Shown here in pieces: positions 5,927 to 32,563 of a DNA stretch of 64,000 nt; position 1 is the first letter of the stretch; each line of letters begins with the position of its first letter. Origin of the DNA: Eledone cirrhosa. Lineage: Eukaryota. The DNA lies in contig OZ024746.1 of the NCBI GenBank assembly GCA_964016885.1, forward strand, positions 51,832,001-51,896,000. Direction: 5' to 3'. The notes under the pieces were generated by a model, which saw only the letters and a list, made by a program, of their open reading frames with translations, was not told where the DNA came from and searched no databases. Position numbers and translations under genes: made by a program.

Positions 5927-9949
<4,023 letters not shown>

Positions 9950-10193
9950 TTTTCTTTATTAACCACAAGGGTTCACATAAAGTAGACATTAAGGACAGTA
10001 CAGGACAATACAGGACGGTACAAATGGGCATTTCTGCGTGTAAAAAAAAACAGAGGTTGAAATAAAATAACAAAGAAAAATTCCCCAATAGGGGGGAGAC
10101 TTCCAAGGGACATTTGTGGAGAAAGCCCATTAAAAGACCACAGTGGCCCTGACCACCAGGGCAAGTGCCCTCTCCCAGTTTTCCACCTTTAAT

Positions 10194-13100: not shown

Positions 13101-13613
13101 ACGTCTGAGCAGGTTGGTGAGACTCTTGCACCCTCCTTCCCTATCCACTAATCCCACACAATCCCAGCGTGCATCTAAGATCCCGTTCCAGTCGCCCACT
13201 AACACTAAAGAGCGGGACGTTCCAAGAAAGGTCTCCAGACGCCGGAAGAAATCAGGCCGCCCTGCTCCTGTCGGGGCATAGACGGCCACTAACCTGAAAG
13301 CTTGCCCGTCTCCGCTGGTCACGTCCAGCGCCACCAACTTACCTTCTGGGTCCAGGAAGATGGCCCGTATGGCAAGATCCAAACCTCTCCGAAAAAGCAC
13401 AGCAACTCCTCCCCCCGATCCCGGACGGCTGGGAGATGCGTACACATCGTAGCCGCCGAAGATCGGAGCGAAAGCCTGTGCTTCGGAGATTCTGGTCTCG
13501 CTGATGGCCACTACATCTATGTTTAGTGACCTGAGGTCGTTGAGCAGGTGGCCCTGCTTCCATGACGACCCCAAGCCACGCGCATTTATGCTGCCTATTC
13601 TGAGTGAGGTCAT
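10194..13613 (-). CDS. Tx1-type ORF2: APE endonuclease, reverse transcriptase, C-terminal CCHC
   Basis: 1139 aa: SINARGL, SETR, VYAP, GDWN, YLDR, TDH (EN); KSPGLDG, FRPITLLN, DQSKAFDRV, RQGCPLS, YADD (RT); CPRC..ETVLHALVQC. Confidence 0.96.
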   Translation of the reverse strand: MTSLRIGSINARGLGSSWKQGHLLNDLRSLNIDVVAISETRISEAQAFAPIFGGYDVYASPSRPGSGGGVAVLFRRGLDLAIRAIFLDPEGKLVALDVTSGDGQAFRLVAVYAPTGAGRPDFFRRLETFLGTSRSLVLVGDWNGILDARWDCVGLVDREGGCKSLTNLLRRFELSDRYRMDFPNVPMWTWTNRIGSSRSYLDRVFCREIDRSSIGCPQFKIVSYTDHKFVICVLDLDRLHRRGPGYWKLNASLPARKAYRDRISELVKRALTGAIVNNKWWFALKRAIRIESIRFSKTLAIEKNRAEGELVRKLDEALSKGIATDVLAAKLALDQFFNAKHEGCVVRARVRALRHEGSKAVQWARVAEARRGNKATIRSLVDHDGRILLDPGQMCEAFQQHFAQLFGGSGGPDRGMDFSVYLDGLPRLSATEAECCEKPITTAEVRDAMTSCTRGKSPGLDGLPYELYVQMPNLFGGLLADVYCNWQQNGRIPSSVSRGAVALLRKDPNKGDNIDNFRPITLLNTEFKILAKVLAKRLALVVGGLVGEAQTCAIPDRSIHDNLHLMRYIVERVAREPGTGGSLINLDQSKAFDRVDHRYLAAVLRTAGFGPVFRGWIAAMHSDICSVVRVNGHLSEPFNIMRSVRQGCPLSSLLYVLTLEPLLHKLETLRGVPRELGCGRSVSAYADDVTVVVSNAKHIEAIGTTLREYEAVTGAMINQEKSVGLQLGTWRGRSMPSNSVVGRWTDGPVKLLGVWFGPDLQTDKNWDEVTSRVASLTQKWAERKLSLKGRAEVANAYIASVIYYRLTVVPCPKPRLTALERLLFRFLWKGRAPMVRRSICCQHPLRGGLGMPWLMMRRHALRLRHLHLFLDGDQVWSPFARHVFPQLVSLTELQSWVKRRPRGSAWRLECLQALTALDQSGNVIGGNSTLAFYRGLVEGKSDDVLGETLCVDENQLANLFGRTFGPGPMDNFQKSLAWQCYRGALPVRDKLYRHGGAVSRTCPRCAQGDETVLHALVQCPSIADLWVYVEHLLSSVGRIQLSAESIVRIAPPPSFSLEGQAVFICLVAMAKEIVWWTRLKGLKTSTYLFGDALINFFKFHLKRKIRVEREVLSSQHFVERWVREASMARMNGPSLSMCL

Positions 13614-13647
13614 GTTGAAAAGGAGTGGAAAAGATGGGAAAGACCAC

Positions 13648-15096
13648 TTACCTTACTTCTCGTAGGGGAAGGACGGCTTTTCCATCCTTTTCACTGCTTA
13701 TGGCCTCCTCAGGAAGGATGTCCTTATAAATCCTCCTGGAGAGTGCTTGTCGGAAGTCTCCGATGTCTTTGGGGAATTTTTGTTTTAGTGTCATGTACGT
13801 TTTCTGTGTGATGCGAGTGATTTGTATGTGTGGAGGTGGTGTGAATTTTGGGGTTGTTGTGTAGTCTTTTTCTGTGATGCTGGTGTTGTGTTGGATGTAG
13901 TGTAATAATTGCTTGTTGTTCAAATTTAATGCTGTGTAGTGTGTATCGTTTTGGTTGTTTTGTTTTGTTTGCGTTTGTTGTGGGTTTGTTTCTGTTTCGT
14001 ATTTTGGTGACTTTTGTGGTGTAGGTGATGGTGGTGCTGGGGATAATGATGGTGATGGTGTTGGTGTTTGGGTTGATGGGGTTGGTGATGCTGGTGTGGA
14101 TGGTGGCATATCTGTCCTAACTTTTTTGTTTCTTAGTTTATTTGTTTCCCTCTGTATTTTGTTTTTGGAGGGGGAAGGAAGAGAATTTTTTCTTTTTTGG
14201 TTTCTTTTTTTTTTTCCGGATATCGTTTCCCACTCCTCGTCGTCACAATCTGTCTCCAGTTGTGATAGGCCGGGGAGTGGAAAATCCTCCACAGCCGTTA
14301 GTTTTGGTTGTGGTGTGGTGGATGGTGTAGGCGCTGGTGCTTGTTCTGAAGCGTTGGGTGGTGGTGGTGTTGGTTTTGCTGGTGGTGGTAGTGGTGTTGG
14401 TTTTGCTACTGTTGCTGGGGTTGTTGCTGTTATAGTTGCTTCTGTTGTTGCTGCTACAGTTGTTGCTGGCATCTCTGCTACTGGTGGTGTTGATGGTTGT
14501 GTCACTGGGGTGGGTAGGAGAGGTGGCCTCAACCTTTTAGCCTGAGGGCAGAAAGCCCTTAGGTGGGTTCCTTCACCACAAACGACACACCTAGGTCTTC
14601 TGCCCTCGACAATTACCGTGAGGTGGCTGCCGTCAGTGAGGTCTATTACCTCTGGGATCTCCTCAATGCTTTTTTGGTCCGCTTGGATCAGGAGCTCCAT
14701 CCCAGATCCGGACCAGTTTTCCTGCTTTTCTTTTGCTATTGTTATTATTTTCGTGTTGGCCTCGATGCCGGCGATGACAGCCGCTATTAGCCAGGGAATT
14801 TCGATGGCCGGTGGAACGTGGGTCACCCTGATCTTTACGAGTCTCTGGCCACAATAGCTTGGGACGAGTGTGAAGTCGTCACTTTTTAATGGGGCCATGG
14901 AGTGTTCTCTAGCCTCCTCTGGTGTTTCAAAGAACACATCCACGGTTCCATACTTTTGCCCACGTCTGATGTGGGTTTTTCTTGCCCACACATGTCCCAA
15001 AGCTTTTTGGATTTGGGACTCGGATGCCCGTTCCACTCGGCGCGATTTTACATTTATTGTTCTATACGACACGGTGCACAGGCGCCGATGCTCCAT
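13648..15096 (-). CDS. Tx1-type ORF1 (gag-like, zinc knuckle, Pro/Thr-rich tail)
   Basis: 482 aa with CVVCGEGTHLRAFC (CX2CX4HX4C) directly upstream of ORF2. Confidence 0.85.
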   Translation of the reverse strand: MEHRRLCTVSYRTINVKSRRVERASESQIQKALGHVWARKTHIRRGQKYGTVDVFFETPEEAREHSMAPLKSDDFTLVPSYCGQRLVKIRVTHVPPAIEIPWLIAAVIAGIEANTKIITIAKEKQENWSGSGMELLIQADQKSIEEIPEVIDLTDGSHLTVIVEGRRPRCVVCGEGTHLRAFCPQAKRLRPPLLPTPVTQPSTPPVAEMPATTVAATTEATITATTPATVAKPTPLPPPAKPTPPPPNASEQAPAPTPSTTPQPKLTAVEDFPLPGLSQLETDCDDEEWETISGKKKRNQKRKNSLPSPSKNKIQRETNKLRNKKVRTDMPPSTPASPTPSTQTPTPSPSLSPAPPSPTPQKSPKYETETNPQQTQTKQNNQNDTHYTALNLNNKQLLHYIQHNTSITEKDYTTTPKFTPPPHIQITRITQKTYMTLKQKFPKDIGDFRQALSRRIYKDILPEEAISSEKDGKAVLPLREVR

Positions 15097-15647
15097 TTTA
15101 TTAGGTGGGGGGTGAGGCTGACCGTGTACCCATCTTTCTTTACCATTTGTTTGGCATTTTCTAAATCTTCTTGAGTTACCGTGAACGCTTCGAATTGTTT
15201 TGCTACGATGGCGAAACTGAGGGTCGGTTTTATAATGTCATTGTTGTTGTTGTTGCTATCGTTATTTGTGTTAATCTTAATTTTTGTTTCAGTTGTGGTT
15301 GTGGTGACGTCATTCGTCTTTGGTGCGGAAGAGTCCATTTTGCTTGATTTCATTTCGACATCACGAGTTAATTTATTTTTTTCTTCTTTTGTTTCTGTTG
15401 TCGCGGTGGTGGTGGGGGTGGTGGTTGTCGCGGTGGTGGTGGTGGTGGTGGTGGAGGCTTTAACACCTGCAGTCATTGGTAATGGCGGGAAATGAATGTC
15501 TGCCTGAGACAAATTTAAAATATTGCTACTGCTTATATTTTTTTTTGTGTTGGCAAACGTAGTAACATTTACAATGGTGGTGTCGGTGTGAGGTGTTATT
15601 TTGTGAGGAAGGTTTTCAGCTGCTTCGTGCAGAGGTGAATTAGCCAT
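15054..15647 (-). CDS. Upstream Thr-rich ORF, probably the N-terminal part of ORF1 separated by a -1 frameshift
   Basis: 197 aa with an SFAIVAK motif; overlaps the ORF1 start. One extra C in the C6 run near 15107-15112 would fuse the two frames. Confidence 0.6.
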   Translation of the reverse strand: MANSPLHEAAENLPHKITPHTDTTIVNVTTFANTKKNISSSNILNLSQADIHFPPLPMTAGVKASTTTTTTTATTTTPTTTATTETKEEKNKLTRDVEMKSSKMDSSAPKTNDVTTTTTETKIKINTNNDSNNNNNDIIKPTLSFAIVAKQFEAFTVTQEDLENAKQMVKKDGYTVSLTPHLIKWSIGACAPCRIEQ

Positions 15648-15855
15648 TTTTTTTCAAAGAAATTTTTTGATAATAATAAAAGTTAAAATTTTGGGCACAA
15701 GGCCCCAATTTTTTTGGGTGTCCTTTTCGGAAAACAATGTATGTGTGCTTATAAACAGTTAACAATAAAATTTTCCATAAATGGCAATTTTTAACAAACG
15801 GAAATAACAAACCTTTGCGGAGCTCACGATGATACGATTTACTACGTAGGTCGCC

Positions 15856-15909
<54 letters not shown>

Positions 15910-15910
<1 letters not shown>

Positions 15911-18900
15911 GAAGAAGAAGAACCCCCCCCTCCTCTCCTCTGGCTACACTATATAGGACAGCGAAACTCACCAACACCAGAAACTAGATACACCACCCAC
16001 CCCATCATCTGTGTACACTAAACACAACAGCATTTTCACCTTCACCGCCACCGCTCACTACGGCCATCATTACCACCACTATCCCATCACCGCCGCCACC
16101 ACCCCCTGACTCCTTCACTGCTGCTGCCACCGCTACAGCACCATCACTACAGTAATACGGTCGCATCACCGCCACCACTGCCTCGGTATCGACATCACCA
16201 CCACCACTGTCTCAGTATCGCCAACGCCGCCAGTCTCTGCTGGCTACCACTTCCACATTATAGAATTCCTACTACTAACAAAGAGGAAGGCATCAAAATA
16301 TATAGATAGACTCAAAAGAAAAAAGAAAAAACAAACAACAAAAGCAGCACAGCAACAACAGTAAAAAACGAGAAAAACAGAGAAAAACAAAAACAAAAAA
16401 AGAAACCCCAAAAACGTAAAGAAAATAAGAATGAAGAGAGAAGCAGGCGGACGGACAGAGAAGAGGGGGGAAAAAGTAAAACTTAAAAAACAAAAACTAA
16501 GTCAGACATTCGAATACTACATTACAATGAAACTTATGCTTATTCATTTTTGGGGCCCTTTCTGCCCGTGTGTTTGTTTGTTTATGTGTGTCCGTATACA
16601 GCGTGGTGATAATGCCACACAAGGGCCAGGTGGGATGGCGGATCCACAGATGGCTATGTAAACATACATTCGCCAATCCTCGATAAGAGTGTTTAAATAT
16701 CGAACATAAACAGTTCGAATAACGGTGAAATGGAGACTAGAACGTCATGTGACAGACTCTCACCCAACAGGTGCCCCCTGGCTCAGCAGCAGGAACCTGA
16801 CTGTCAACCAAATACTGCTGATGTTGGAGGAAGAAGAAGAAGGAAAGGGGCCAGAACCAACTGGACGAAAGAATTGAATAGAACTGTTATGCAATGCTAC
16901 CTGAAAAGTAACCCCAAGGAGAGGGGCTACAGGAGACGGATGCATAACATCTGGAACGAGATTGGTTTATTTAAATTAGATGAACAAAAATTGGCCGGGC
17001 AGGCTCGGGTAATAAGAACTAATGGGTGGATAAGCGAGCTGGAACTGGAGGAAGTGAGCAGAGAGAATGGCTTGGAGATGGCGGGTGTAGTATGCCAGAC
17101 AAGCGAGCCGGCGGGAAATGAAGGTGAGGAGGTCCTGAGAACGGAGGAACCACCCGAAGCAGACAATGATCTGAATACTGAGATAAATAATACCTGGAAC
17201 AGAGATACGGCCACTGAGGAGATGAATGCTGACGGGCTAGGACAAGATTCGGTTGACATCCTAAATTTAGTGGTAGATGAGTTGAACAATGATAGTGGGA
17301 GACCTATGAACCTAAGATTTGTAGACAGGAAAAAGTTAAAAGAAACAACAGCTAAGGTAAACAAAGTCATCCCATACCTTGAGGCGAGGAGTCTTCACCA
17401 GTGCAACAATATCCTCAAAGCAACAGCAAATACGGTGAGGAAACTACTTGGTATAAAAGCGAGAGGAAACAACAGACAAGAAAGAGCAGAGCCGTGGTGG
17501 AAGAAGCGACTGAGTGGGCAAATCGGGGAAATGAGAAATGACATAGGAAAGCTTGAGTCACTACTGAATGGGACACTAAAAAACATAGGCACTAAAAATA
17601 GACTGGAAATAAAATACAAAACTAGGAGTAAAAAGCTAAATATTATCATAGAGGAATTGAAGCAACGCATTGTAGCAAAGAGTGCCAAAATCAGGCGATA
17701 CGAGAACAGAGTCAGTCAGTATAAACAGAACCGCATGTTCGACAACAACCAGAAGATGCTGTTTGGACAGCTTGAGGGGAAAGAAAGAGGCAACGACTTG
17801 ATCCCTGGGGCGGAACAAGCTAAAACATTCTGGAGAGGAATATGGGAGCAGGATGTTAGACACAATGCCCAGGCAGGGTGGATTGAGACAGTACAGAGGG
17901 AGATCGGTGAGCAGGCACAGCAACAGACTGATTTGAGTATCACAGTTGAAACTCTTAAGGGGCAAGCCAAAAAACTAACCAACTGGAAATCACCAGGCCC
18001 AGATGGTGTGCAGGGGTATTGGATTAAACATTTAACATCCCTCCACCCGAAGCTGACGGCCATGTTCAATGACTGCTTGGTGTCGGGTGAGGTGCCAGAG
18101 TGGTTGACAAAAGGTACCACAGTTCTGATAATGAAAGACCGAATCAAGGGTAATGATGTTACCAACTATAGACCTATCACATGTCTGCCCGTAATGTGGA
18201 AACTGTTGACGAGCATTGTGTCTGAGGAAATCTACCATCACCTCCACACAAACAACTTGTTGCCGGACGAACAGAAAGGATGCCGAAAGAAGTCACGTGG
18301 TACAAAGGACCAGTTGCTTATTGATAAGATGGTAATGGGGAATTGCAGGAGGAGACACACTGATCTTGCCATGGGATGGATAGACTACAGAAAGGCATTT
18401 GACATGGTGCCTCATTCCTGGATCACCAAAAGCCTGGAGATCTTCAGGGTGGCAGATAACATCAGACAGTTGCTGGGCAGGAGTATGGGGTCCTGGGAGA
18501 CAGAGTTGACATCAACTGGAGTATCCTTGGGAAGCGTGAAGATCAAGAGAGGTATCTTCCAGGGAGATAGCCTGTCCCCTCTGTTGTTTGTCCTTGCCCT
18601 GATGCCCTTGACCATTATGCTGCGAAAAGTGAGAGCAGGATACAAGTTGGGAAGGGGAGAGCTTACCATCAATCACCTCCTCTTCATGGACGATCTTAAG
18701 CTCTTCGGGAAGAGTGAGAAGGAGTTGGATGTGCTTGTTGACACTGTCCGTATTTTCAGCAGTGATATATGTATGCAGTTTGGTATTGGTAAATGTGGAG
18801 TCATTGTGATGAGGAGGGGTAGGTTGAGCAGAAGTAACGGGATCCAGATACCAACAGGTGAGATGATAAAGGAAATTGACTCTGAGGAAGGATACAAGTA

Positions 18901-20197
18901 TTTGGGCGTTCTGGAGGCTGATGGCATAAAGAACAAAAAAATGAAGGAATTGTTAAGAACTGAATACATTCGGAGAGTAAGGAGCGTATTGAAGTCACAT
19001 CTGAACAGCAGAAATGCCATAAGCGCAGTAAATTCCCGAGCTGTGTCTATTATTAGGTACAGTGCGGGAATTCTGAGATGGAATGTTGCTGAACAAAAAG
19101 AAATGGATAGGAAGACTAGGAAGCTATTGACTATCTACAACATGTTCCACAAGAGGAGTGATGTCGATAGACTCTACCTAAGGAGATCTGAGGGTGGAAG
19201 AGGTCTTATCAGCATAGAGGACTGTGTTCAGATGGAGAAAAACAACCTATACAAATACGTGACCTATAGTAAGGAGCCAATGCTCAGAGCTGTACTGAAG
19301 GAGGGGACAGTAGGCCAGGGGATACCCAAGGAGGAAATAACATCAAGGAGGAAGAGCAGCCTTAAGGGAAAATCCCTTCATAGTACCTTCTTTGAGAAAA
19401 CTGAATTTAGAGATCCACAGACATGGAACTGGTTGAGAAGAGGAGACCTCAAAAAGGCTACAGAAGGAATGCTAATGGCTGCGCAGGAGCAGGCCCTCAA
19501 AACGAAGTGGTTGAAGCACCATATCTACAAGGAGGAGGCTAGCCCACTGTGCAGGATCTGTGGAGAGAGAGAGGAGACTGTGGCTCACATTGTGTCCGAG
19601 TGTAAACACCTAGCCCAGACCCACTATAAGGGCTGGAGACACGATGTGATGGGCAGGGTGATCCACTGGCACCTGTGCAAAGTAAACAATCTACCACATT
19701 CTGAGAAATGGTATGAGCATAGGCCAGAGGCGGTGATGGAGAACAGTCAGGTGAAGGTGCTGTGGGATTTTAGGATACAGACGGACAAAAAACTGGAACA
19801 CAATAGACCTGATCTGGTGGTTGTGGACAAAGAAAAAAGATCGTGCCTGATTGTGGATGTGGCCTGCCCGTTCGACACGAGAGTGCAAGAGAAGGAGAGG
19901 GAGAAAATTAACCGATACCAGGACCTAAAGTGGGAGGTGAAAAGGATTTGGAACTGCCATGAAGTCAAAGTGATCCCGATTGTCATAGGCGCACTGGGGA
20001 CTATCTCCAAAGGTTTCCAGGGATGGTTAAAGAAAATCGGCCCCTTCACGCTTTTTGGAACGCTTCAAAAGGCATGCTTGCTTGGAACGGCAAGAACCCT
20101 CCGATACGTCCTGAATATCTGAGGCTGCAGGTAGTGGCTTGATATTCAATCCAACGGACTTTCCAGTTAACCAACATCAATGACTGAGATTCAAGGA
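15910..20197 (+). mobile_element. R4/Dong-clade element family A, copy 1 (intact ORF, leader 5'-truncated)
   Basis: Between (AAT)n tracts; single ORF with RT and REL endonuclease; ~75-bp 3' UTR. Confidence 0.92.
16730..20122 (+). CDS. Dong/R4 RT + CCHC + restriction-like endonuclease, 1130 aa
   Basis: [37 protein letters not shown]...HIVSEC, RHD, RPDLVVVD...DVACPFD, EKINRY. Confidence 0.96.
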   Translation: METRTSCDRLSPNRCPLAQQQEPDCQPNTADVGGRRRRKGARTNWTKELNRTVMQCYLKSNPKERGYRRRMHNIWNEIGLFKLDEQKLAGQARVIRTNGWISELELEEVSRENGLEMAGVVCQTSEPAGNEGEEVLRTEEPPEADNDLNTEINNTWNRDTATEEMNADGLGQDSVDILNLVVDELNNDSGRPMNLRFVDRKKLKETTAKVNKVIPYLEARSLHQCNNILKATANTVRKLLGIKARGNNRQERAEPWWKKRLSGQIGEMRNDIGKLESLLNGTLKNIGTKNRLEIKYKTRSKKLNIIIEELKQRIVAKSAKIRRYENRVSQYKQNRMFDNNQKMLFGQLEGKERGNDLIPGAEQAKTFWRGIWEQDVRHNAQAGWIETVQREIGEQAQQQTDLSITVETLKGQAKKLTNWKSPGPDGVQGYWIKHLTSLHPKLTAMFNDCLVSGEVPEWLTKGTTVLIMKDRIKGNDVTNYRPITCLPVMWKLLTSIVSEEIYHHLHTNNLLPDEQKGCRKKSRGTKDQLLIDKMVMGNCRRRHTDLAMGWIDYRKAFDMVPHSWITKSLEIFRVADNIRQLLGRSMGSWETELTSTGVSLGSVKIKRGIFQGDSLSPLLFVLALMPLTIMLRKVRAGYKLGRGELTINHLLFMDDLKLFGKSEKELDVLVDTVRIFSSDICMQFGIGKCGVIVMRRGRLSRSNGIQIPTGEMIKEIDSEEGYKYLGVLEADGIKNKKMKELLRTEYIRRVRSVLKSHLNSRNAISAVNSRAVSIIRYSAGILRWNVAEQKEMDRKTRKLLTIYNMFHKRSDVDRLYLRRSEGGRGLISIEDCVQMEKNNLYKYVTYSKEPMLRAVLKEGTVGQGIPKEEITSRRKSSLKGKSLHSTFFEKTEFRDPQTWNWLRRGDLKKATEGMLMAAQEQALKTKWLKHHIYKEEASPLCRICGEREETVAHIVSECKHLAQTHYKGWRHDVMGRVIHWHLCKVNNLPHSEKWYEHRPEAVMENSQVKVLWDFRIQTDKKLEHNRPDLVVVDKEKRSCLIVDVACPFDTRVQEKEREKINRYQDLKWEVKRIWNCHEVKVIPIVIGALGTISKGFQGWLKKIGPFTLFGTLQKACLLGTARTLRYVLNI

Positions 20198-20202
20198 ATA
20201 AC

Positions 20203-20251
<49 letters not shown>

Positions 20252-20252
<1 letters not shown>

Positions 20253-23200
20253 GGGAAGAAGACGCACGAGGTGACGGAGGTCATGAAATCGCTCCCGTAA
20301 GTTTTGAATTTTTAACATATTTAAATCATTTGTGAAATAACAACTCTTAGTACAAATGCTACGTAAAGCACCCGGCTTGAGCCCCAAAAAAATTCGGACC
20401 CAAAATATATTGTTATAAGGCTCAAATATTCAAATATTCAACTTTGTATTGTACACTGTATATCCCCCAAAAAATGGCTATAAATGGAAGAAGAAGAACC
20501 CCCCCCCCCTCCTCTCCTCTGGCTACACTATATAGGACAGCTAAACTCACCAACACCAGAAACTAGATACACCACCCACCCCATCATCTGTGTACACTAA
20601 ACACAACAGCATTTTCACCTTCACCGCCACCGCTCACTACGGCCATCATTACCACCACTATCCCATCACCGCCGCCACCACCCCTTGACTCCTTCACTGC
20701 TGCTGCCACCGCTACAGCACCATCACTACAGTAATACGGCTCAAATATTCAAATATTCAACTTTGTATTGTACACTGTATATCCAAAAAAAAATAAAATG
20801 GCTATAAATGGAAGAAGAAGAACCCCCCCCCCCTCCTCTTTTCTGGCTACACTATATAGGACAGCGAAACTCACCAACACCAGAAACTAGATACACCACC
20901 CACCCCATCATCTGTGTACACTAAACACAACAGCATTTTCACCTTCACCGCCACCGCTCACTACGGCCATCATTACCACCACTATCCCATCACCGCCGCC
21001 ACCACCCCCTGACTCCTTCACTGCTGCTGCCACCGCTACAGCACCATCACTACAGTAATACGGTCGCATCACCGCCACCACTGCCTCGGTATCGACATCA
21101 CCACCACCACTGTCTCAGTATCGCCAACGCCGCCAGTCTCTGCTGGCTACCACTTCCACATTATAGAATTCCTACTACTAACAAAGAGGAAGGCATCAAA
21201 ATATATAGATAGACTCAAAAGAAAAAAGAAAAAACAAACAACAAAAGCAGCACAGCAACAACAGTAAAAAACGAGAAAAACAGAGAAAAACAAAAACAAA
21301 AAAAGAAACCCCAAAAACGTAAAGAAAATAAGAATGAAGAGAGAAGCAGGCGGACGGACAGAGAAGAGGGGGGAAAAAGTAAAACTTAAAAAACAAAAAC
21401 TAAGTCAGACATTCGAATACTACATTACAATGAAACTTATGCTTATTCATTTTTGGGGCCCTTTCTGCCCGTGTGTTTGTTTGTTTATGTGTGTCCGTAT
21501 ACAGCGTGGTGATAATGCCACACAAGGGCCAGGTGGGATGGCGGATCCACAGATGGCTATGTAAACATACATTCGCCAATCCTCGATAAGAGTGTTTAAA
21601 TATCGAACATAAACAGTTCGAATAACGGTGAAATGGAGACTAGAACGTCATGTGACAGACTCTCACCCAACAGGTGCCCCCTGGCTCAGCAGCAGGAACC
21701 TGACTGTCAACCAAATACTGCTGATGTTGGAGGAAGAAGAAGAAGGAAAGGGGCCAGAACCAACTGGACGAAAGAATTGAATAGAACTGTTATGCAATGC
21801 TACCTGAAAAGTAACCCCAAGGAGAGGGGCTACAGGAGACGGATGCATAACATCTGGGACGAGATTGGTTTATTTAAATTAGATGAACAAAAATTGGCCG
21901 GGCAGGCTCGGGTAATAAGAACTAATGGGTGGATAAGCGAGCTGGAACTGGAGGAAGTGAGCAGAGAGAATGGCTTGGAGATGGCGGGTGTAGTATGCCA
22001 GACAAGCGAGCCGGCGGGAAATGAAGGTGAGGAGGTCCTGAGAACGGAGGAACCACCCGAAGCAGACAATGATCTGAATACTGAGATAAATAATACCTGG
22101 AACAGAGATACGGCCACTGAGGAGATGAATGCTGACGGGCTAGGACAAGATTCGGTTGACATCCTAAATTTAGTGGTAGATGAGTTGAACAATGATAGTG
22201 GGAGACCTATGAACCTAAGATTTGTAGACAGGAAAAAGTTAAAAGAAACAACAGCTAAGGTAAACAAAGTCATCCCATACCTTGAGGCGAGGAGTCTTCA
22301 CCAGTGCAACAATATCCTCAAAGCAACAGCAAATACGGTGAGGAAACTACTTGGTATAAAAGCGAGAGGAAACAACAGACAAGAAAGAGCAGAGCCGTGG
22401 TGGAAGAAGCGACTGAGTGGGCAAATCGGGGAAATGAGAAATGACATAGGAAAGCTTGAGTCACTACTGAATGGGACACTAAAAAACATAGGCACTAAAA
22501 ATAGACTGGAAATAAAATACAAAACTAGGAGTAAAAAGCTAAATATTATCATAGAGGAATTGAAGCAACGCATTGTAGCAAAGAGTGCCAAAATCAGGCG
22601 ATACGAGAACAGAGTCAGTCAGTATAAACAGAACCGCATGTTCGACAACAACCAGAAGATGCTGTTTGGACAGCTTGAGGGGAAAGAAAGAGGCAACGAC
22701 TTGATCCCTGGGGCGGAACAAGCTAAAACATTCTGGAGAGGAATATGGGAGCAGGATGTTAGACACAATGCCCAGGCAGGGTGGATTGAGACAGTACAGA
22801 GGGAGATCGGTGAGCAGGCACAGCAACAGACTGATTTGAGTATCACAGTTGAAACTCTTAAGGGGCAAGCCAAAAAACTAACCAACTGGAAATCACCAGG
22901 CCCAGATGGTGTGCAGGGGTATTGGATTAAACATTTAACATCCCTCCACCCGAAGCTGACGGCCATGTTCAATGACTGCTTGGTGTCGGGTGAGGTGCCA
23001 GAGTGGTTGACAAAAGGTACCACAGTTCTGATAATGAAAGACCGAATCAAGGGTAATGATGTTACCAACTATAGACCTATCACATGTCTGCCCGTAATGT
23101 GGAAACTGTTGACGAGCATTGTGTCTGAGGAAATCTACCATCACCTCCACACAAACAACTTGTTGCCGGACGAACAGAAAGGATGCCGAAAGAAGTCACG

Positions 23201-25100
23201 TGGTACAAAGGACCAGTTGCTTATTGATAAGATGGTAATGGGGAATTGCAGGAGGAGACACACTGATCTTGCCATGGGATGGATAGACTACAGAAAGGCA
23301 TTTGACATGGTGCCTCATTCCTGGATCACCAAAAGCCTGGAGATCTTCAGGGTGGCAGATAACATCAGACAGTTGCTGGGCAGGAGTATGGGGTCCTGGG
23401 AGACAGAGTTGACATCAACTGGAGTATCCTTGGGAAGCGTGAAGATCAAGAGAGGTATCTTCCAGGGAGATAGCCTGTCCCCTCTGTTGTTTGTCCTTGC
23501 CCTGATGCCCTTGACCATTATGCTGCGAAAAGTGAGAGCAGGATACAAGTTGGGAAGGGGAGAGCTTACCATCAATCACCTCCTCTTCATGGACGATCTT
23601 AAGCTCTTCGGGAAGAGTGAGAAGGAGTTGGATGTGCTTGTTGACACTGTCCGTATTTTCAGCAGTGATATATGTATGCAGTTTGGTATTGGTAAATGTG
23701 GAGTCATTGTGATGAGGAGGGGTAGGTTGAGCAGAAGTAACGGGATCCAGATACCAACAGGTGAGATGATAAAGGAAATTGACTCTGAGGAAGGATACAA
23801 GTATTTGGGCGTTCTGGAGGCTGATGGCATAAAGAACAAAAAAATGAAGGAATTGTTAAGAACTGAATACATTCGGAGAGTAAGGAGCGTATTGAAGTCA
23901 CATCTGAACAGCAGAAATGCCATAAGCGCAGTAAATTCCCGAGCTGTGTCTATTATTAGGTACAGTGCGGGAATTCTGAGATGGAATGTTGCTGAACAAA
24001 AAGAAATGGATAGGAAGACTAGGAAGCTATTGACTATCTACAACATGTTCCACAAGAGGAGTGATGTCGATAGACTCTACCTAAGGAGATCTGAGGGTGG
24101 AAGAGGTCTTATCAGCATAGAGGACTGTGTTCAGATGGAGAAAAACAACCTATACAAATACGTGACCTATAGTAAGGAGCCAATGCTCAGAGCTGTACTG
24201 AAGGAGGGGACAGTAGGCCAGGGGATACCCAAGGAGGAAATAACATCAAGGAGGAAGAGCAGCCTTAAGGGAAAATCCCTTCATAGTACCTTCTTTGAGA
24301 AAACTGAATTTAGAGATCCACAGACATGGAACTGGTTGAGAAGAGGAGACCTCAAAAAGGCTACAGAAGGAATGCTAATGGCTGCGCAGGAGCAGGCCCT
24401 CAAAACGAAGTGGTTGAAGCACCATATCTACAAGGAGGAGGCTAGCCCACTGTGCAGGATCTGTGGAGAGAGAGAGGAGACTGTGGCTCACATTGTGTCC
24501 GAGTGTAAACACCTAGCCCAGACCCACTATAAGGGCTGGAGACACGATGTGATGGGCAGGGTGATCCACTGGCACCTGTGCAAAGTAAACAATCTACCAC
24601 ATTCTGAGAAATGGTATGAGCATAGGCCAGAGGCGGTGATGGAGAACAGTCAGGTGAAGGTGCTGTGGGATTTTAGGATACAGACGGACAAAAAACTGGA
24701 ACACAATAGACCTGACCTGGTGGTTGTGGACAAAGAAAAAAGATCGTGCCTGATTGTGGATGTGGCCTGCCCGTTCGACACGAGAGTGCAAGAGAAGGAG
24801 AGGGAGAAAATTAACCGATACCAGGACCTAAAGTGGGAGGTGAAAAGGATTTGGAACTGCCATGAAGTCAAAGTGATCCCGATTGTCATAGGCGCACTGG
24901 GGACTATCTCCAAAGGTTTCCAGGGATGGTTAAAGAAAATCGGCCCCTTCACGCTTTTTGGAACGCTTCAAAAGGCATGCTTGCTTGGAACGGCAAGAAC
25001 CCTCCGATACGTCCTGAATATCTGAGGCTGCAGGTAGTGGCTTGATATTCAATCCAACGGACTTTCCAGTTAACCAACATCAATGACTGAGATTCAAGGA
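20252..25100 (+). mobile_element. R4/Dong family A, copy 2 (longest leader, intact ORF)
   Basis: Repeat of copy 1 at offset 4903, with extra 5' sequence 20252-20809 including a ~320-bp tandem duplication. Confidence 0.92.
21633..25025 (+). CDS. Dong/R4 RT-REL protein, 1130 aa
   Basis: Matches 16730-20122 except one visible N/D change (HNIWN vs HNIWD). Confidence 0.96.
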   Translation: METRTSCDRLSPNRCPLAQQQEPDCQPNTADVGGRRRRKGARTNWTKELNRTVMQCYLKSNPKERGYRRRMHNIWDEIGLFKLDEQKLAGQARVIRTNGWISELELEEVSRENGLEMAGVVCQTSEPAGNEGEEVLRTEEPPEADNDLNTEINNTWNRDTATEEMNADGLGQDSVDILNLVVDELNNDSGRPMNLRFVDRKKLKETTAKVNKVIPYLEARSLHQCNNILKATANTVRKLLGIKARGNNRQERAEPWWKKRLSGQIGEMRNDIGKLESLLNGTLKNIGTKNRLEIKYKTRSKKLNIIIEELKQRIVAKSAKIRRYENRVSQYKQNRMFDNNQKMLFGQLEGKERGNDLIPGAEQAKTFWRGIWEQDVRHNAQAGWIETVQREIGEQAQQQTDLSITVETLKGQAKKLTNWKSPGPDGVQGYWIKHLTSLHPKLTAMFNDCLVSGEVPEWLTKGTTVLIMKDRIKGNDVTNYRPITCLPVMWKLLTSIVSEEIYHHLHTNNLLPDEQKGCRKKSRGTKDQLLIDKMVMGNCRRRHTDLAMGWIDYRKAFDMVPHSWITKSLEIFRVADNIRQLLGRSMGSWETELTSTGVSLGSVKIKRGIFQGDSLSPLLFVLALMPLTIMLRKVRAGYKLGRGELTINHLLFMDDLKLFGKSEKELDVLVDTVRIFSSDICMQFGIGKCGVIVMRRGRLSRSNGIQIPTGEMIKEIDSEEGYKYLGVLEADGIKNKKMKELLRTEYIRRVRSVLKSHLNSRNAISAVNSRAVSIIRYSAGILRWNVAEQKEMDRKTRKLLTIYNMFHKRSDVDRLYLRRSEGGRGLISIEDCVQMEKNNLYKYVTYSKEPMLRAVLKEGTVGQGIPKEEITSRRKSSLKGKSLHSTFFEKTEFRDPQTWNWLRRGDLKKATEGMLMAAQEQALKTKWLKHHIYKEEASPLCRICGEREETVAHIVSECKHLAQTHYKGWRHDVMGRVIHWHLCKVNNLPHSEKWYEHRPEAVMENSQVKVLWDFRIQTDKKLEHNRPDLVVVDKEKRSCLIVDVACPFDTRVQEKEREKINRYQDLKWEVKRIWNCHEVKVIPIVIGALGTISKGFQGWLKKIGPFTLFGTLQKACLLGTARTLRYVLNI

Positions 25101-25130
25101 ATAACAATAACAATAATAATAATAATAATA

Positions 25131-28100
25131 AAAAAAAAACAACAAAAAGAAAACCCCGTGACCAAGAAATACCGGGATGGCGGCCGGCGGGGAATAGCCA
25201 TGTCTCTGGGGTAGAACGACCCCTCTAGTCTTGGTTGACACTCGTTCTAGAAGTGGTAACACGAAATGATTACCCCTTGGCGGATAAGGATAAAACGCGA
25301 CAAAATAAAGTAAATGTCTAATGATAAAATCTCATACCGGATCGGCCGTCACCCGGGTAAAAAAGGGCCGCGTCCTTCAGAGAGGAACCAGACTGGGGTC
25401 GAAAAATCAGCTAATGGTTCAAACCTTCCCATCACTTCGGAGCTGGAGACCTCCCATAACCGGAATACTCCTACTGTTGGCCCTCCATGCTCACCACCAA
25501 GAAATCCAAAGAAAAAGAGAGAAAAATGGTCAAGGGAAGATAATAAAGAAGTCCTTGAGGCTTTCTACACTGCCATGTACTACCCATCAAATACATCGAA
25601 TACAGAACAAACATATATCAACTGGAAAATAAAACATCCCGAAAACAGAGGCTATATTGACAGTAACAAACTAGCCAATATACGAAGAAATATTGTAAGA
25701 AAAAAGTTACTAACTGATATAGAAATTGATCAGATCAAGCTAGTAGCACAAAGTCAGCGAAGGGAAAATGAAGCATGTGTCAGTGAAAACGAGGTAAACT
25801 GTAACACTTCGAATCCCAGGGTTGGGGCGGAATCACTGGCAACAGAACAAATTAAAGAAAGGAGCGAAAAAGTGGAGGGAGTGCATGCTCAGGATGAAAC
25901 TCCAAATGAAAATAATGAGATCGTAAATGATAAAGAAATGAATGAGAATGAACTTGCCAACTTGAATGATGAAATTATGATCGAATGGATGAAAATGAAA
26001 GAATCTGACATGGGGCAACGAGACACCCTCCCTAAGATCCAGAACTCCAAACAGGACCAAAAGATAATACACAAGACTAACATAATTCTCAAAAACATTA
26101 TCATCACAAACTAAACATTACTGACTTAAATCATCTCTATTATGCATCGGCTAAAGTCACCACTCACTTATGTGGAGTGAAGATGAAAAAACAAAGGAAT
26201 TCCCACAAGAAATCTACTTGGCAAGATAACATCAATCGCCAAATAAACCTTCTCCGATCTGACATAGAAATTTTAACAAACTATAAAGTAGGTGAACATG
26301 TTAAACAAACTAAACTTAGAAAATTGAAAAAAAAGTACAGTATAAGATCAACATGTGACATATACATGCTGATAGAAACAATCAAGCAAAAAGTGTCGGC
26401 CAAAGCTGCTCGTATAAGGCGCTTTGAAAAACGATCTAGATTCTATAAGGACAATAATATGTTCAAAAACAACCAAAGAAACTTCTACAGAAAAATTGGT
26501 AAGTCAACAATAACTGCTAAATCAATACCACCCAAGGAGGAAGTGTAAGAATTCTGGGAAAAGATCTGGGCCGAAGAAAAAGTTCATAACATACATGCCC
26601 CATGGATAGACAGACAAATGAAAGAAACAGCTCACCTTGAAGAACAAACATGGGAAAATATAACAGTTGAACAGCTGCGCTTGGCTCTAAGAAAAACCAG
26701 CAAATGGAAATCCCCAGGAAAAGACAAAATACAAAACTTTTGGATAAATGCCTTCACAGAGTCTCATGAGCTGTTAGCCCAACTTTACAATGAAATAGTT
26801 AAGGAGCCAGAAAAGATACCATCATGGCTAGTTAACGGCATTACATTCCTGCTACTGAAGAATGATGAGACAAACAATCCCAAAAATTACAGACTGATAA
26901 CCTGCTTGACCACAATGTATAAAATTTTAACATCAGTCCTAACTGAATACACATATGACCACCTGATAACAAATGACCTATTTCCCATTGAGCAGAAAGG
27001 GTGTAAACGAGGCTCATATGGCTGTAAGGATCAGCTTCTGGTTAACAAAATGATACTGGAAGATTGTCATAATAGACACAAAAATCTATCGATTGCTTGG
27101 ATAGATTATAAAAAAGCATTCGATAGTTTGCCACACAGTTGGATTGAAAAATGTTTAGAGATTTTCAAAATATCCCCCGTTGTCAGGAGGTTTTTGTCAT
27201 TCAGTATGAGGACATGGAGAACGACACTCCTTTTGAATAGTGAAACAAAATCACTGGAAGCTGGAGAAGTTAACATTAATTGTGGAATTTTTCAGGGTGA
27301 CTCTTTATCACCGCTTTTATTCTGCATCGCACTTATACCATTAAGTAAAATGCTCAATGAAACAAAACATGGATATAGAGTCTATGACAAAACCATTAAT
27401 CACCTGTTCTACATGGATGACCTGAAACTATTTGCAAAAAATGATGAACAATTGCAAGGGCTATTATCCACTGTGAAGCAGTTCAGTGATGACATTAAAA
27501 TGGAGTTTGGACTGGATAAATGCGCCAAAGCAACGTTCACCAGAGGAAAGCTGCTGAAGAGTTCAGACATTAATCTTGATCGGGGGATCGTGATAAGAGA
27601 GCTTGATCAAGAAAAAACTTACAAATATCTAGGTGTTTGTGAAGGAGACGGAATCAAGCACTCGACAATGAGGGAAAGGATAAGGAAGGAATGTTACCGC
27701 AGAGTCAGAGCAATCTTAAGAACGGAATTGAATGCAAGGAATAGGATCGATGCCATAAACACGCTTGCCATACCAGTAGTAACCTACAGTTACAATGTCA
27801 TCAACTGGTCAAGCACAGAGATCCGTAGGCTCGATACAAAAATCCGAAAATTCTTAACCATGCACAGAATGCATCACCCTAAGGCAGACATAGATAGAAT
27901 ATATCTCCCTAGGAAAGAAGGAGGACGTGGGTTATTCCAGTTAGACATTGCGTTGAAAACTGCAACAATTGGATTATCGACATATCTAAGGGAATCACAT
28001 GATTGGATGATCAAACTCGTTTTGAAACACGAAAGCACCAAAAGATCATATTCCATTACAAAAGATGCACAAAGGTACAGTAATGGACTACAAATTTCAA

Positions 28101-29100
28101 AAGTCCCATTTACTGCTGAAATGGAAAACACAGAAAAAGCAAAGCAGGTAAAAGTAACTGCAAAGAAAGAACTGCTACAGAAACTGGCTAAGAAATGGCA
28201 AGAAAAGCCTCTGTATGGAAAATACCCAGAGCGAGCTAACAATCCTGATGTTGACAAAACTTTAACCCATCAGTGGTTGGCATCCTCTGGACTGAAATCG
28301 GAGACTGAAGGACTGATTATATCAGCACAAAATCAGTGTCTGCCAACAAAAAATTACCAAGCCAACATAATAAAAAATGGGTGCAGCCCATTATGCCGTG
28401 TATGCAAAAAACAACCAGAGACCATTGACCATATAATTTCAATGTGCAGTCCTATAGCTCCAACCGAATACCTAAACAGGCATGACAGAGCTGCACAATA
28501 CATACATTGGATAATGTGTAAGCATTTTGACCTGCCCCATCAAAAGAATTGGTGGCAGCATCAACCACCTCCCATACTTGAAAAAGATCACATCTCAATC
28601 TTGTGGAACTTTAGCATCCAAACAGACCGAAAAATAGATGCAAATAGACCTGATATAATATTGAAGGACTTTCAAAGGAGGGTATGCCTGCTAATTGATA
28701 TGTCTGTTCCAATAAACAAGAATGTATCTATAAAAACATTTGAAAAATTGAGCAAGTATAAGGACCTGGAGATAGAAATTGGAAACATGTGGAAATTGAG
28801 AACTAAAACAATATCAGTGGTTGTAGGCGCTCTGGGAATGATACCTAAGGGGTCTAACGACTACTTATCGCAAATCCCAGGAAACCCGCGTATAGGAGAA
28901 ATACAAAAGATAGTACTAATGGGATCTGCCCATATACTAAGGAAGATCCTGTCAATATAAGTACATCACAAGTCTAAACACTAAGGATGCATGTGTGAAT
29001 ATGTATGTTCTTTCTTGAACATGGCGGACCTTGTTGTCTCTTGAGGTCACTGGTTGTGACTTGGTGATAACTCGTATGAACATAAAGCAAGATAAATGCA
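25131..29100 (+). pseudogene. R4/Dong family B, full length but disrupted
   Basis: ORF pieces 25314-26114, 26177-26548 and 26618-28960 (YMDD, CRVC..HIISMC, RHD, RPDIILKD). Frameshift near 26110 and stop at 26546-26548. AT-rich and diverged from family A; ends in (AAT)n. Confidence 0.9.
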
Positions 29101-29120
29101 AATAATAATAATAATAATAA

Positions 29121-31248
29121 CAATGACTGCTTGGTGTCGGGTGAGGTGCCAGAGTGGTTGACAAAAGGTACCACAGTTCTGATAATGAAAGACCGAATCA
29201 AGGGTAATGATGTTACCAACTATAGACGTATCACATGTCTGTCCGTAATGTGGAAACTGTTGACGAGCATTGTGTCTGAGGAAATCTACCATCACCTCCA
29301 CACAAACAACTTGTTACCGGACGAACAGAAAGGATGCCGAAAGAAGTCACGTGGTACAAAGGACCAGTTACTTATTGATAAGATGGTAATGGGGAATTGC
29401 AGGAGGAGACACACTGATCTTGCCATGGGATGGATAGACTACAGAAAGGCATTTGACATGGTGCCTCATTCTTGGATCACCAAAAGCCTGGAGATCTTCA
29501 AGGTGGCAGATAACATCAGACAGTTGCTGGGCAGGAGTATGGGGTCCTGGGAGACAGAGTTGACATCAACTGGAGAATCCTTGGGAAGCGTGAAGATCAA
29601 GAGAGGTATCTTCCAGGGAGATAGCCTGTCCCCTCTGTTGTTTGTCCTTGCCCTGATGCCCTTGACCATTATGCTGCGAAAAGTGAGAGCAGGATACAAG
29701 TTGGGAAAGGGAGAGCTTACCATCAATTAACTCCTCTTTATGGACGATCTTAAGCTCTTCGGGAAGAGTGAGAAGGAGTTGGATGTGCTTGTTGACACTG
29801 TCCGTATTTTCAGCAGTGATATATGTATGCAGTTTGGTATTAGTAAGTGTGGAGTCATTGTGATGAGGAGGGGTAGGTTGAGCAGAAGTAACGGAATCCA
29901 AATACCAACAGGTGAGATGATAAAGGAAATTGACTCTGAGGAAGGATACAAGTATTTGGGCGTTCTGGAGGCTGATGGCATAAAGAACAAAAAAATGAAG
30001 GAATTGTTAAGAACTGAATACATTCGGAGAGTAAGGAGCGTATTGAAGTCACATCTGAACAGCAGAAATGCCATAAGCGCAGTAAATTCCCGAGCTGTGT
30101 CCATTATTAGGTACAGTGCGGGAATTCTGAGATGGAATGTTGCTGAACAAAAAGAAATGGATAGGAAGACTAGGAAGCTATTGACTATCTACAACATGTT
30201 CCACAAGAGGAGTGATGTCGATAGACTCTACCTAAGGAGATCTGAGGGTGGAAGAGGTCTCATCAGCATAGAGGACTGTGTTCAGATGGAGAAAAACAAC
30301 CTATACAAATACGTGACTGATAGTAAGGAGCCAATGCTCAGAACTGTACTGAAGGAGGGGACGATAGGCCAGGGGATGTCCAAGGAGGAAATAACATCAA
30401 AGAGAAAGAGCAGCCTTCAGGGAAAATCCCTTCATAGTACCTTCTTTGAGAAAACTGAATTTAGAGATCCACAGATATGGAACTGGTTGAGAAGAGGAGA
30501 CCTCAAAAAGGCTACAGAAGGAATGTTAATGGCTGCGCAGGAGCAGGCCCTCAAAACGAAGTGGTTGAAACACCATATTTACAAGGAGGAGGCTAGCCCA
30601 CTGTGCAGGATCTGTGGAGAGAGAGAGGAGACTGTGGCTCACATTGTATCCGAGTGTAAACACCTAGCCCAGACCCCCTATAAGGGCTGGATACATGATG
30701 TGATGGGCAGGGTGATCCACTGGCACCTGTGCAAAGTAAACAATTTACCACATTCTGAGAAATGGTATGAGCATAGGCCAGAGGCGGTGATGGAGAACGA
30801 TCAGGTGAAGGTGCTGTGGGATTTTAGGATACAGACGGACAAGAAACTGGAACACAATAGACCTGACCTGGTGGTTGTGGACAAAGAAAAAAGATCGTGT
30901 CTGATTGTGGATGTGGCCTGCCCATTCGGCACGAGAGTGCAAGAGAAGGAGAGGGAGAAAATTAACCGATACCAGGACTTAAAGTGGGAGGTAAAAAGGA
31001 TTTGGAACTGCATGAAGTCAAAGTGATCCCGATTGTCATAGGCGCACTGGGGACTATCTCCAAAAGTTTCCAGGGATGGTTAAACAAAATCGGCCCCTTC
31101 ACGCTTTTTGGAACGCTTCAAAAGGCATGCTTGCTGGGAACAGCAAGAACCCTCCGATACGTCCTGAATATCTGAGGCTGCAGGTAGTGGCTTGATATTC
31201 ATTCCAACGGACTTTCCAGTTAACCAACATCAATGACTGAGATTCAAG

Positions 31249-31250
<2 letters not shown>
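29121..31250 (+). pseudogene. Dong family A copy 3, 5'-truncated with stop (29728-29730) and frameshift (~31010)
   Basis: Matches family A from CAATGACTGCTTGG onward with scattered substitutions; same 3' UTR + (AAT)n. Confidence 0.92.
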
Positions 31251-31298
<48 letters not shown>

Positions 31299-31305
31299 GT
31301 AATAA

Positions 31306-32524
31306 ATATATGTATGCAGTTGGGTATTGGTAAATGTGTAGTCATTGTGATGAGGAGGGGTAGGTTGAGCAGAAGTAACGGGATCCAGATACCAACAGGT
31401 GAGATGATAAAGGAAATTGACTCTGAGGAAGGATACAAGTATTTGGGCGTTCTGGAGGCTGATGGCATAAAGAACAAAAAAATGAAGGAATTGTTAAGAA
31501 CTGAATACATTCGGAGAGTAAGGAGCGTATTGAAGTCACATCTGAACAGCAGAAATGCCATAAGCGCAGTAAATTCCCGAGCTGTGTCTATTATTAGGTA
31601 CAGTGCGGGAATTCTGAGATGGAATGTTGCTGAACAAAAAGAAATGGATAGGAAGACTAGGAAGCTATTGACTATCTACAACATGTTCCACAAGAGGAGT
31701 GATGTCGATAGACTCTACCTAAGGAGATCTGAGGGTGGAAGAGGTCTTATCAGCATAGAGGACTGTGTTCAGATGGAGAAAAACAACCTATACAAATACG
31801 TGACCTATAGTAAGGAGCCAATGCTCAGAGCTGTACTGAAGGAGGGGACAGTAGGCCAGGGGATACCCAAGGAGGAAATAACATCAAGGAGGAAGAGCAG
31901 CCTTAAGGGAAAATCCCTTCATAGTACCTTCTTTGAGAAAACTGAATTTAGAGATCCACAGACATGGAACTGGTTGAGAAGAGGAGACCTCAAAAAGGCT
32001 ACAGAAGGAATGCTAATGGCTGCACATTCTGAGAAATGGTATGAGCATAGGCCAGAGGCGGTGATGGAGAACGATCAGGTGAAGGTGCTGTGGGATTTTA
32101 GGATACAGACGGACAAAAAACTGGAACACAATAGACCTGACCTGGTGGTTGTGGACAAAGAAAAAAGATCGTGCCTGATTGTGGATGTGGCCTGCCCGTT
32201 CGACACGAGAGTGCAAGAGAAGGAGAGGGAGAAAATTAACCGATACCAGGACCTAAAGTGGGAGGTGAAAAGGATTTGGAACTGCCATGAAGTCAAAGTG
32301 ATCCCGATTGTCATAGGCGCACTGGGGACTATCTCCAAAGGTTTCCAGGGATGGTTAAAGAAAATCGGCCCCTTCACGCTTTTTGGAACGCTTCAAAAGG
32401 CATGCTTGCTTGGAACGGCAAGAACCCTCCGATACGTCCTGAATATCTGAGGCTGCAGGTAGTGGCTTGATATTCAATCCAACGGACTTTCCAGTTAACC
32501 AACATCAATGACTGAGATTCAAGG
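31306..32524 (+). pseudogene. Dong family A copy 4, 5'-truncated with 213-bp in-frame internal deletion
   Basis: Junction ATGGCTGC|ACATTCTGAG at 32023/32024 skips the sequence equivalent to 19483-19695. Confidence 0.92.
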
Positions 32525-32563
32525 AATAACAATAACAATAATAATAATAATAATAATAATAAT

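Follow-up and report, generated by a model that had tools for sequence, protein, structure and literature searches.

The locus described here raises the question of how a non-LTR retrotransposon of the Dong type came to carry a 1.35-kb leader whose beginning resembles the 5′ untranslated region (UTR) of a neighbouring L1/Tx1-type element. Within the window, that is, the whole 64,000-nt stretch of DNA that was analysed, 6.8–32.6 kb is a nest of non-LTR retrotransposons in AAT microsatellites. The minus strand harbors the L1/Tx1-type element (15855–9949) and an older truncated relative, while the plus strand harbors four copies of Dong A, a single-ORF family, and one broken distant relative, Dong B. 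The two groups use the same repeat in opposite directions: on its own strand, the Tx1 element reads into (ATT)n, and the Dong elements read into (AAT)n. The relevant parts are as follows.

20197–20252, plus strand: (AAT)n tract upstream of Dong A copy 2 (TRF); target repeat, which copy 1 shares at its 3′ end
20253–20473, plus strand: Tx1-like 5′ segment of the Dong A leader, starting GGG; candidate internal promoter
20415–21063, plus strand: two-copy 324-nt tandem unit in the leader, which duplicates the ATG motif
21064–21430, plus strand: further part of the leader, ACC-rich then A-rich (60% A), resembling the Tx1 ORF1 N-terminus in composition
21431–21599, plus strand: 3′ part of the leader; its last ~50 nt align with the pre-ORF region of the Dong relative L001
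21600–25025, plus strand: ORF of Dong A copy 2, with 1141 aa between stops and its first ATG at 21633
25026–25131, plus strand: Dong A 3′ UTR and downstream (AAT)n
15910–20196, plus strand: Dong A copy 1, starting inside the 324-nt unit; intact ORF at 16697–20122
15856–15909, plus strand: (AAT)n (TRF) separating Dong A copy 1 from the 5′ end of Tx1, the two lying head to head
15648–15855, minus strand: Tx1 5′ UTR, 208 nt, starting GGCG after (ATT)n on its own strand
13648–15647, minus strand: Tx1 ORF1, spread over two overlapping frames, the first with 197 aa counted from its ATG and the second with 529 aa
9949–13652, minus strand: Tx1 ORF2, with 1152 aa between stops, followed by the 3′ UTR, which ends at (ATT)n
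25132–29100, plus strand: Dong B, with a broken ORF and a 182-nt leader; pseudoknot-like motif at about 25160–25250
29121–32563, plus strand: two more Dong A copies with truncated 5′ ends, starting at 29121 and 31306 and each flanked by AAT tracts

We assign Dong A to the R4/Dong type of non-LTR retrotransposons, a label that rests on its anatomy and target. Its 1141-aa ORF encodes a reverse transcriptase (RT; RVT_1, E 5.7e-23), a CCHC zinc finger, and an RPD..D..K restriction-like endonuclease motif, without a Pfam match to Exo_endo_phos. The CCHC, RHD, and PD..D..K columns are invariant across 13 aligned sequences of Dong A and its relatives, and AAT tracts flank all four Dong A copies in the window. 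Likewise, R4/Dong elements have a single ORF with RT and restriction-like endonuclease and a (TAA)n target, the latter being described for most insects, molluscs, and cnidarians (PMC7998251). The relatives of Dong A share a conserved N-terminal block; as to an N-terminal SANT/Myb-like domain, Pfam returned no Myb match at E 0.01. No relatives turned up in the viral contigs or prokaryote genomes searched. In Octopus vulgaris, recently active Dong-R4 insertions number 1129 and amount to 4,732,901 bp (PMC13282606, Table 1). Division of these figures gives a mean of ~4.2 kb, more than is needed for a 3.4-kb ORF with short UTRs, for families that are not necessarily Dong A.

The N-termini of the relatives match the Dong A frame from 21600; therefore, the native Dong part begins at ~21550–21600 and not at 21430. 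Of the leader, only the terminal ~50 nt align with L001, together with the beginning of the ORF (z 4.6, partly coding). The ORF start of the relatives corresponds to ~21590–21600 of the window (21590–21635, plus strand), where Dong A has no ATG; its first in-frame ATG lies 11 codons past that start, and 14 leader ATGs lie upstream. Copy 1 starts at 15910, equivalent to position 20810 of copy 2, from which it differs by 4 substitutions and one 3-nt gap. The two ORFs differ at 2 of ~3,400 positions and have in common a 2-nt variant that is missing in copy 4. Copy 4 lacks ~210 nt including the CCHC finger (at 32023–32026), apparently in frame.

The neighbour at 9949–15855 carries ORF1 and ORF2 with AP endonuclease, RT, and zf-RVT, and we take it to be a Tx1 element, following its microsatellite targeting and the preliminary description of this DNA. 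ORF2 is intact, and ORF1 is split over two overlapping frames (15054–15237, minus strand). Since both ORF1 pieces match one continuous relative, P0019, the split is probably a frameshift mutation. An AAC/AAT tract is located at 15254, just ahead of the conserved part of ORF1, and the resemblance to the Dong A leader stops there. Such tracts are uncommon, occurring in 3 of 151 ORF1 relatives, most of which are fragments. Five Tx1 3′ ends (6826, 9949, 36046, 44352, and 45609) have a common terminal motif before the polyadenylation signal; on their own strand, the microsatellites are (ATT)n in two cases and of the (TATC)n type in three.

The first ~220 nt of the Dong A leader are likely homologous to the Tx1 5′ UTR, judging from motif order, spacing, and global alignment. 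All eight motif patterns that the preliminary description had called collinear occur in both sequences in the same order, at leader/Tx1 offsets of 9/4, 29/24, 47/41, 75/73, 114/106, 131/138, 147/161, and 217/204, which differ by at most 14 nt over 220 nt. A ninth, looser pattern, added in the re-test, matched neither the leader nor the Tx1 UTR. The distances given earlier to the start codons also hold, with the leader ATG at 20474, 221 nt from 20253, and the Tx1 ATG at 15647 (minus strand), after 208 nt. Both segments close with an A-run followed by ATGGCTA. The words CCCAAAAAAATT and AAAAATGGCT are each found exactly twice in positions 1–50000 of the window on both strands, once per element; unit b of the tandem has a variant of the shared word with four A.

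For this pair, which was picked after the fact and includes the one Tx1 5′ UTR of the comparison set, global alignment gave z values of 3.2–5.5, with the score reached by 0–3 of 1000 shuffles and by none of 884 window controls in all six scoring schemes. With higher-order (3-mer, 4-mer) and block (20-nt) shuffles, global z was 2.8–5.6, and it was 2.2–4.3 when the ATG motif was cut off, 2.2 being the value of the strictest scheme. Local alignment gave z 0.8–5.6 across schemes and 0.3–5.2 with higher-order and block shuffles; with stiff gap costs it was not significant (z 0.3–1.6), and neither were the nhmmer comparisons of leader and Tx1 UTR (E 30 and 48). The proposed alignment to a Tx1 5′ end is thus mostly significant globally and fails in strict local and nhmmer comparisons with the one Tx1 UTR used. 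In a sliding search, the leader and the Tx1 UTR are reciprocal best non-self matches across the 64-kb window, with scores of 287 versus 253 for the next best, and 296 versus 238.5. The leader 5′ end scores 296 against Tx1 versus 99.5–134 against the 5′ ends of 10 other Dong elements. A chain of shared words was reached by 2–5 of 2000 shuffles at k=4 and by none of 700 stretches of the window with matched AT content, whether at k=4 or at k=6; it is weak at k=5, where 28–149 of 2000 shuffles and 4 of 700 controls reach it. Inside the UTR, only one of three sliding windows exceeds z 3. The best alignment has 135 matches in 272 columns, a divergence too great for the neighbouring Tx1 family itself to have been the donor; therefore, any donor would belong to an older or sister Tx1 lineage. 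Stable folding was considered for the Dong A and Dong B leaders and for the Tx1 UTR and rejected (z −0.15 to 1.1).

It is unlikely that this resemblance reflects convergence or chance, with a leader that is Dong A's own or host-derived and with shared transcription factor sites and A-runs that mimic homology and were spotted by a match-seeking reader. The local tests are weak, and two strong shared words contain A-runs. YY1 sites have the broader form AANATGGC. The A-run/ATGGC motif resembles the YY1 site CAAGATGGC (PMC5381506), and each element contains one of two short motifs reported for frog L1 5′ UTRs, GAGCTCCG at Tx1 +31 and RGACGCR at leader +8, which shared host factors could produce. 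Coexisting elements can be shaped by the same host machinery (PMC5381506). However, order and spacing are kept over the full 210–220 nt from the terminus to the ATG, and the global alignment stays significant against 4-mer shuffles, against shuffles in blocks of 20 nt, and when the ATG motif is removed. In most settings, moreover, the score is attained by 0 of 884 and 0 of 700 controls taken from real sequence.

Beyond the ATG, composition and weak DNA similarity lean weakly in favour of a decayed Tx1 ORF1 in the leader. In Tx1, a genuine ORF1 N-terminus follows the ATG (E 3e-08 to P0019). In the leader, the ATG frame reaches a stop after 30 codons, and beyond it lies a frame rich in Pro, Thr, and Ala that is interrupted by stops; with 9–16 stops in every forward frame, the leader has no intact upstream ORF. 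The leader and Tx1 had been said to run into ACC-rich and then A-rich sequence, and their base composition indeed agrees segment by segment. The 324-nt unit exhibits a codon-phase bias in the ATG frame, with C at 57% of second positions (p 0.003). Among the 12 indels listed out of 26, the seven downstream of the ATG all have lengths divisible by 3 and the five upstream all measure 1 nt; however, DNA rich in triplets slips by threes in any case, and 11 gap letters occur in record X6-19.

Global comparison of the post-ATG DNA with the ORF1 start gave z 3.2–4.8 in two of three length pairings, in low-complexity sequence, and z 1.2–2.6 in the third. The same leader DNA gave z 2.4–2.7 against another, Pro/Thr-rich part of ORF1, so composition would account for some of the signal. 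Sliding windows downstream of the ATG did not exceed z 2.0, and none lay consistently on the diagonal. At the protein level, none of 510 candidates matched between leader and ORF1, and nothing was left after composition correction. A search with 151 ORF1 relatives returned 3 matches versus 4 for the reversed control; the positive control, Tx1's own N-terminus, also failed, since the N-termini of ORF1 diverge very rapidly. Codon changes in the leader showed no significant excess at third positions (p 0.08–0.6). A relic of the Tx1 3′ UTR in 21400–21560 was rejected as well, with z −0.9 to 1.4 in all ten comparisons; the control, among the five Tx1 3′ ends, gave z 3.7–9.7.

Other Dong elements begin in quite different ways. 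A metagenome scan covered the best 80 of 475 confirmed loci, and the upstream DNA of 22 was examined. All nine relatives with a visible 5′ boundary have leaders of 134–288 nt to the first in-frame ATG, unlike that of Dong A. The Dong B leader, put at ~180 nt in the preliminary description, measures 182 nt, from 25132 to the ATG at 25314. The 5′ heads of the relatives are of unrelated types: a head common to seven loci, tRNA-like heads, and a motif found in Dong B, L001, and L003. The seven-locus head (L004, L005, L009, L011, L012, L013, and L022) occupies the first 100 nt after (AAT)n or the contig start; a short helix closes a nearly invariant 35-nt core without an Rfam match at E 1, and the head is possibly a second structured RNA class. 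The tRNA-like heads are located at 84–168 of L032 (Rfam and ARAGORN) and at about 10–80 of L016 (by eye only). The two loci fall in different branches of the RT tree, and their heads could represent polymerase III promoter capture or a SINE sitting upstream.

The motif of Dong B is common to L001 and L003 (E 1.7e-12 and 2e-09) and lies at 25160–25250 of the window (plus strand), at about 233–350 of L001, and at about 95–201 of L003. Its two crossing helices are paired in 89.6% of cells, with 4 both-side changes in just three sequences, and it has no Rfam match. Compared with the nested double pseudoknot of HDV-like ribozymes, there is one topology match in Dong B (0 of 200 shuffles), and the L3 G and the J4/2 C-N-A are absent. 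The motif is a candidate self-cleaving RNA. The Dong of Bombyx has an HDV-like ribozyme that self-cleaves at the 5′ end (PMC3774820), a trait of the type element that is not known to characterise the whole clade, so the expected ancestral mode is read-through transcription followed by self-cleavage. In contrast, Dong A has a 1.35-kb leader with no match to an HDV-like descriptor in 20235–21720 at any strictness, a descriptor of low sensitivity that missed the leaders of all 22 relatives. A profile of the Dong B, L001, and L003 motif found no match in Dong A, and Rfam returned nothing at the gathering score over 9000–33000. The leaders of Dong A and Dong B have one 10-mer in common; any further direct homology between them was rejected (z −0.1 and −0.2). 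The RT tree has 36 rows of unnamed relatives only, two loci with short matches being left out; it places L001 and L003 on the side of Dong A and Dong B far off, with weak nodes (80/75 to 92/85). Together with the presence of the motif in Dong B, this position suggests that the 5′ RNA motif is ancestral and was lost in Dong A.

Thus, it is hypothesized, with a probability of roughly 0.55, that Dong A exchanged a ribozyme-type 5′ end for the 5′ UTR and ORF1 start of an older Tx1 lineage, which would now act as an internal promoter. A Dong ancestor would have been joined behind a Tx1-lineage 5′ UTR and the first few hundred coding bases, the donor lineage inhabiting the same AAT/ATT microsatellite niche. 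The Dong RT may have switched template onto a Tx1 RNA; template switching has been proposed for other chimeras (PMC13174262, PMC4758252). Alternatively, a sense insertion of Dong into the AAC/AAT (poly-Asn) tract of the Tx1 ORF1 N-terminus would be followed by copying back to the Tx1 transcript start. Either route would leave no AAT tract between leader and ORF and would place the Tx1-like end after (AAT)n in the Dong direction. The Dong protein would then mobilise the fused RNA into (AAT)n in the Dong orientation. The captured UTR would act as an internal RNA polymerase II promoter, so that the element could dispense with its ancestral 5′ RNA, which was structured and probably self-cleaving; the start of ORF1 would later decay and the 324-nt block be duplicated. 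Such a promoter is predicted for the first bases of the leader from their position and from L1 biology (PMC5381506).

The direction from Tx1 to Dong, like the mechanism of joining, is inferred. This direction is favoured because the Tx1 ATG opens a real ORF1 and the Dong ATG frame stops after 30 codons, and because short leaders are the rule in the nine relatives. It is decidedly improbable that both elements took a 5′ module from a third element or a host gene, or that the transfer ran from Dong to Tx1. A ~70-bp 5′ domain that lacks a known donor is indeed common to LINEs of the Nimb and RTE clades and to SINEs of molluscs (PMC4758252), and with a single Tx1 5′ UTR the change is not polarised. 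At least four mutually unrelated 5′ ends occur in the Dong relatives, the tRNA-like heads among them, which suggests that the lineage swaps heads often. Against this, the similarity includes the context of the Tx1 start codon, which is functional only in Tx1, and the post-ATG sequence has an ORF1-like composition and codon-phase bias.

The leader is a family-level trait of Dong A. As described previously, no (AAT)n separates it from the ORF, with no AAT run of three or more units in 20253–21640. Copy 1 had been said to carry the same leader; it does, truncated at 15910, without the whole Tx1-like 221 nt, and within the window only copy 2 ties this segment to a Dong ORF. The 324-nt tandem (20415–21063), passed over previously, holds the A-run/ATGGCT motif twice, with ATGs at 20474 and 20798, and both copies also contain an ACC-rich stretch that encodes the frame rich in Pro, Thr, and Ala, with stops.

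Among the 22 public runs listed, none of them of RNA, 18 contain some of the stretch and five contain half or more. Contigs were compared from four of the 22, one for each of four organism labels and from three studies (2675, 60, 16, and 18 contigs per run, with many variants); one run, X1, is possibly the source sample of the window. Coverage shares below 0.2 in 10 further organism labels and of 0.20 in one stand outside these counts, and summed contig depths are unusable as Dong A copy numbers. Contigs of the four labels cover 29, 28, 28, and 22 of 30 leader bins, the uncovered bin 21222–21287 being a skipped repeat. Records of run X6 bridge 21034–21458 and 21429–21639 and a record of run X7 bridges 21419–21661; records X6-20, X6-21, and X7-30 link the leader 3′ end to the Dong ORF. 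Run X2 contains 20265–20448 with zero substitutions and one gap, and run X7 has identical first leader bases after an AT end. Among the records listed, no contig spans the whole leader. One X6 record (record 18) reads across from one 324-nt unit into the next, and in three runs records end at the branch point of the tandem, 20738–20739, which suggests that the duplication is also a family trait.

Other Dong A loci therefore carry the leader, as anticipated, and since contigs of several labels cover it and some bridge into the ORF, it moves with the element and is not a local duplication. It is highly improbable that the leader is a separate non-autonomous repeat or local DNA, with copies 1 and 2 arising by tandem duplication: the two are near-identical with a common 2-nt variant missing in copy 4 and may be a local pair, and no contig among the records listed joins the first 230 nt to the ORF, yet the internal junctions show no AAT tract, poly-A, or Tx1 3′ UTR, contigs of two non-X1 studies extend from the ACC-rich part as far as 21458 and from 21429 into the ORF, and run-on into unlike DNA is 0–0.07 in three of four runs (0.55 in X7). 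The proposed acquisition of a Tx1 5′ end is accordingly supported in part, as far as a family-wide, probably homologous leader is concerned. More tentatively, a ribozyme-dependent lineage of the restriction-endonuclease type may have altered how it is expressed by capturing the complete promoter of a Tx1 element with the same microsatellite target, lost its structured 5′ RNA, and then spread across several hosts.

Some of this has precedents. The LP (LINE promoter) domain is common to Nimb-17_LMi, I-3_DR, RTE-9_CPB, and mollusc LP-SINEs (PMC4758252). As is probable for Dong A, a 5′ end is shared across LINE clades, and a promoter role and template switching have been proposed (PMC4758252). The LP domain measures ~70 bp and is found in Nimb and RTE, whereas here the whole UTR of 210–220 nt up to the start codon would be involved. 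Nimb and RTE are APE-type clades. Unlike the LP case, the present one brings together a restriction-like-endonuclease element and L1/Tx1 in the same microsatellite and the same genome. Mammalian and lizard L1 elements undergo 5′ UTR replacement, with chimeras arising by template switch or 5′ read-through (PMC5381506, PMC13174262). These swaps and Dong A are alike in having a new 5′ UTR on a conserved ORF and a tandem duplication within the UTR; however, L1 donors are mostly unidentified or host genes, while Dong A, a recipient outside L1, has a candidate donor clade. The ingi and L1Tc elements have a common 77-bp 5′ hallmark with demonstrated promoter and ribozyme activity (PMC4758252). They too are otherwise different elements with a common 5′ extremity, in their case with demonstrated activity.

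L1 5′ UTR replacement is thus already known, and a 5′ domain across LINE clades is in print (PMC4758252). The open-licence literature, which excludes Repbase reports and the repeat library of PMC13282606, contained no Tx1-like leader on a Dong/R4 element; the Dong A family may already stand as a consensus in that library. The source of new LINE 5′ UTRs is an open question, L1 swaps being documented and their donors rarely identified (PMC5381506, PMC13174262). A candidate donor clade that neighbours its recipient within one genome, the recipient being a young family of several copies, makes the acquisition step testable. If true, the capture of a Tx1 5′ end would account for transcription from dispersed microsatellites without read-through and self-cleavage, and shared target repeats would be exchange sites for promoters between distant LINE clades. 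The Dong lineages would then form a natural series (pseudoknot, tRNA, Tx1 head) for LINE 5′ UTR acquisition.

Outside the nest, an 86-bp satellite array of at least 163 copies occupies 49956–64000 and runs off the window end.
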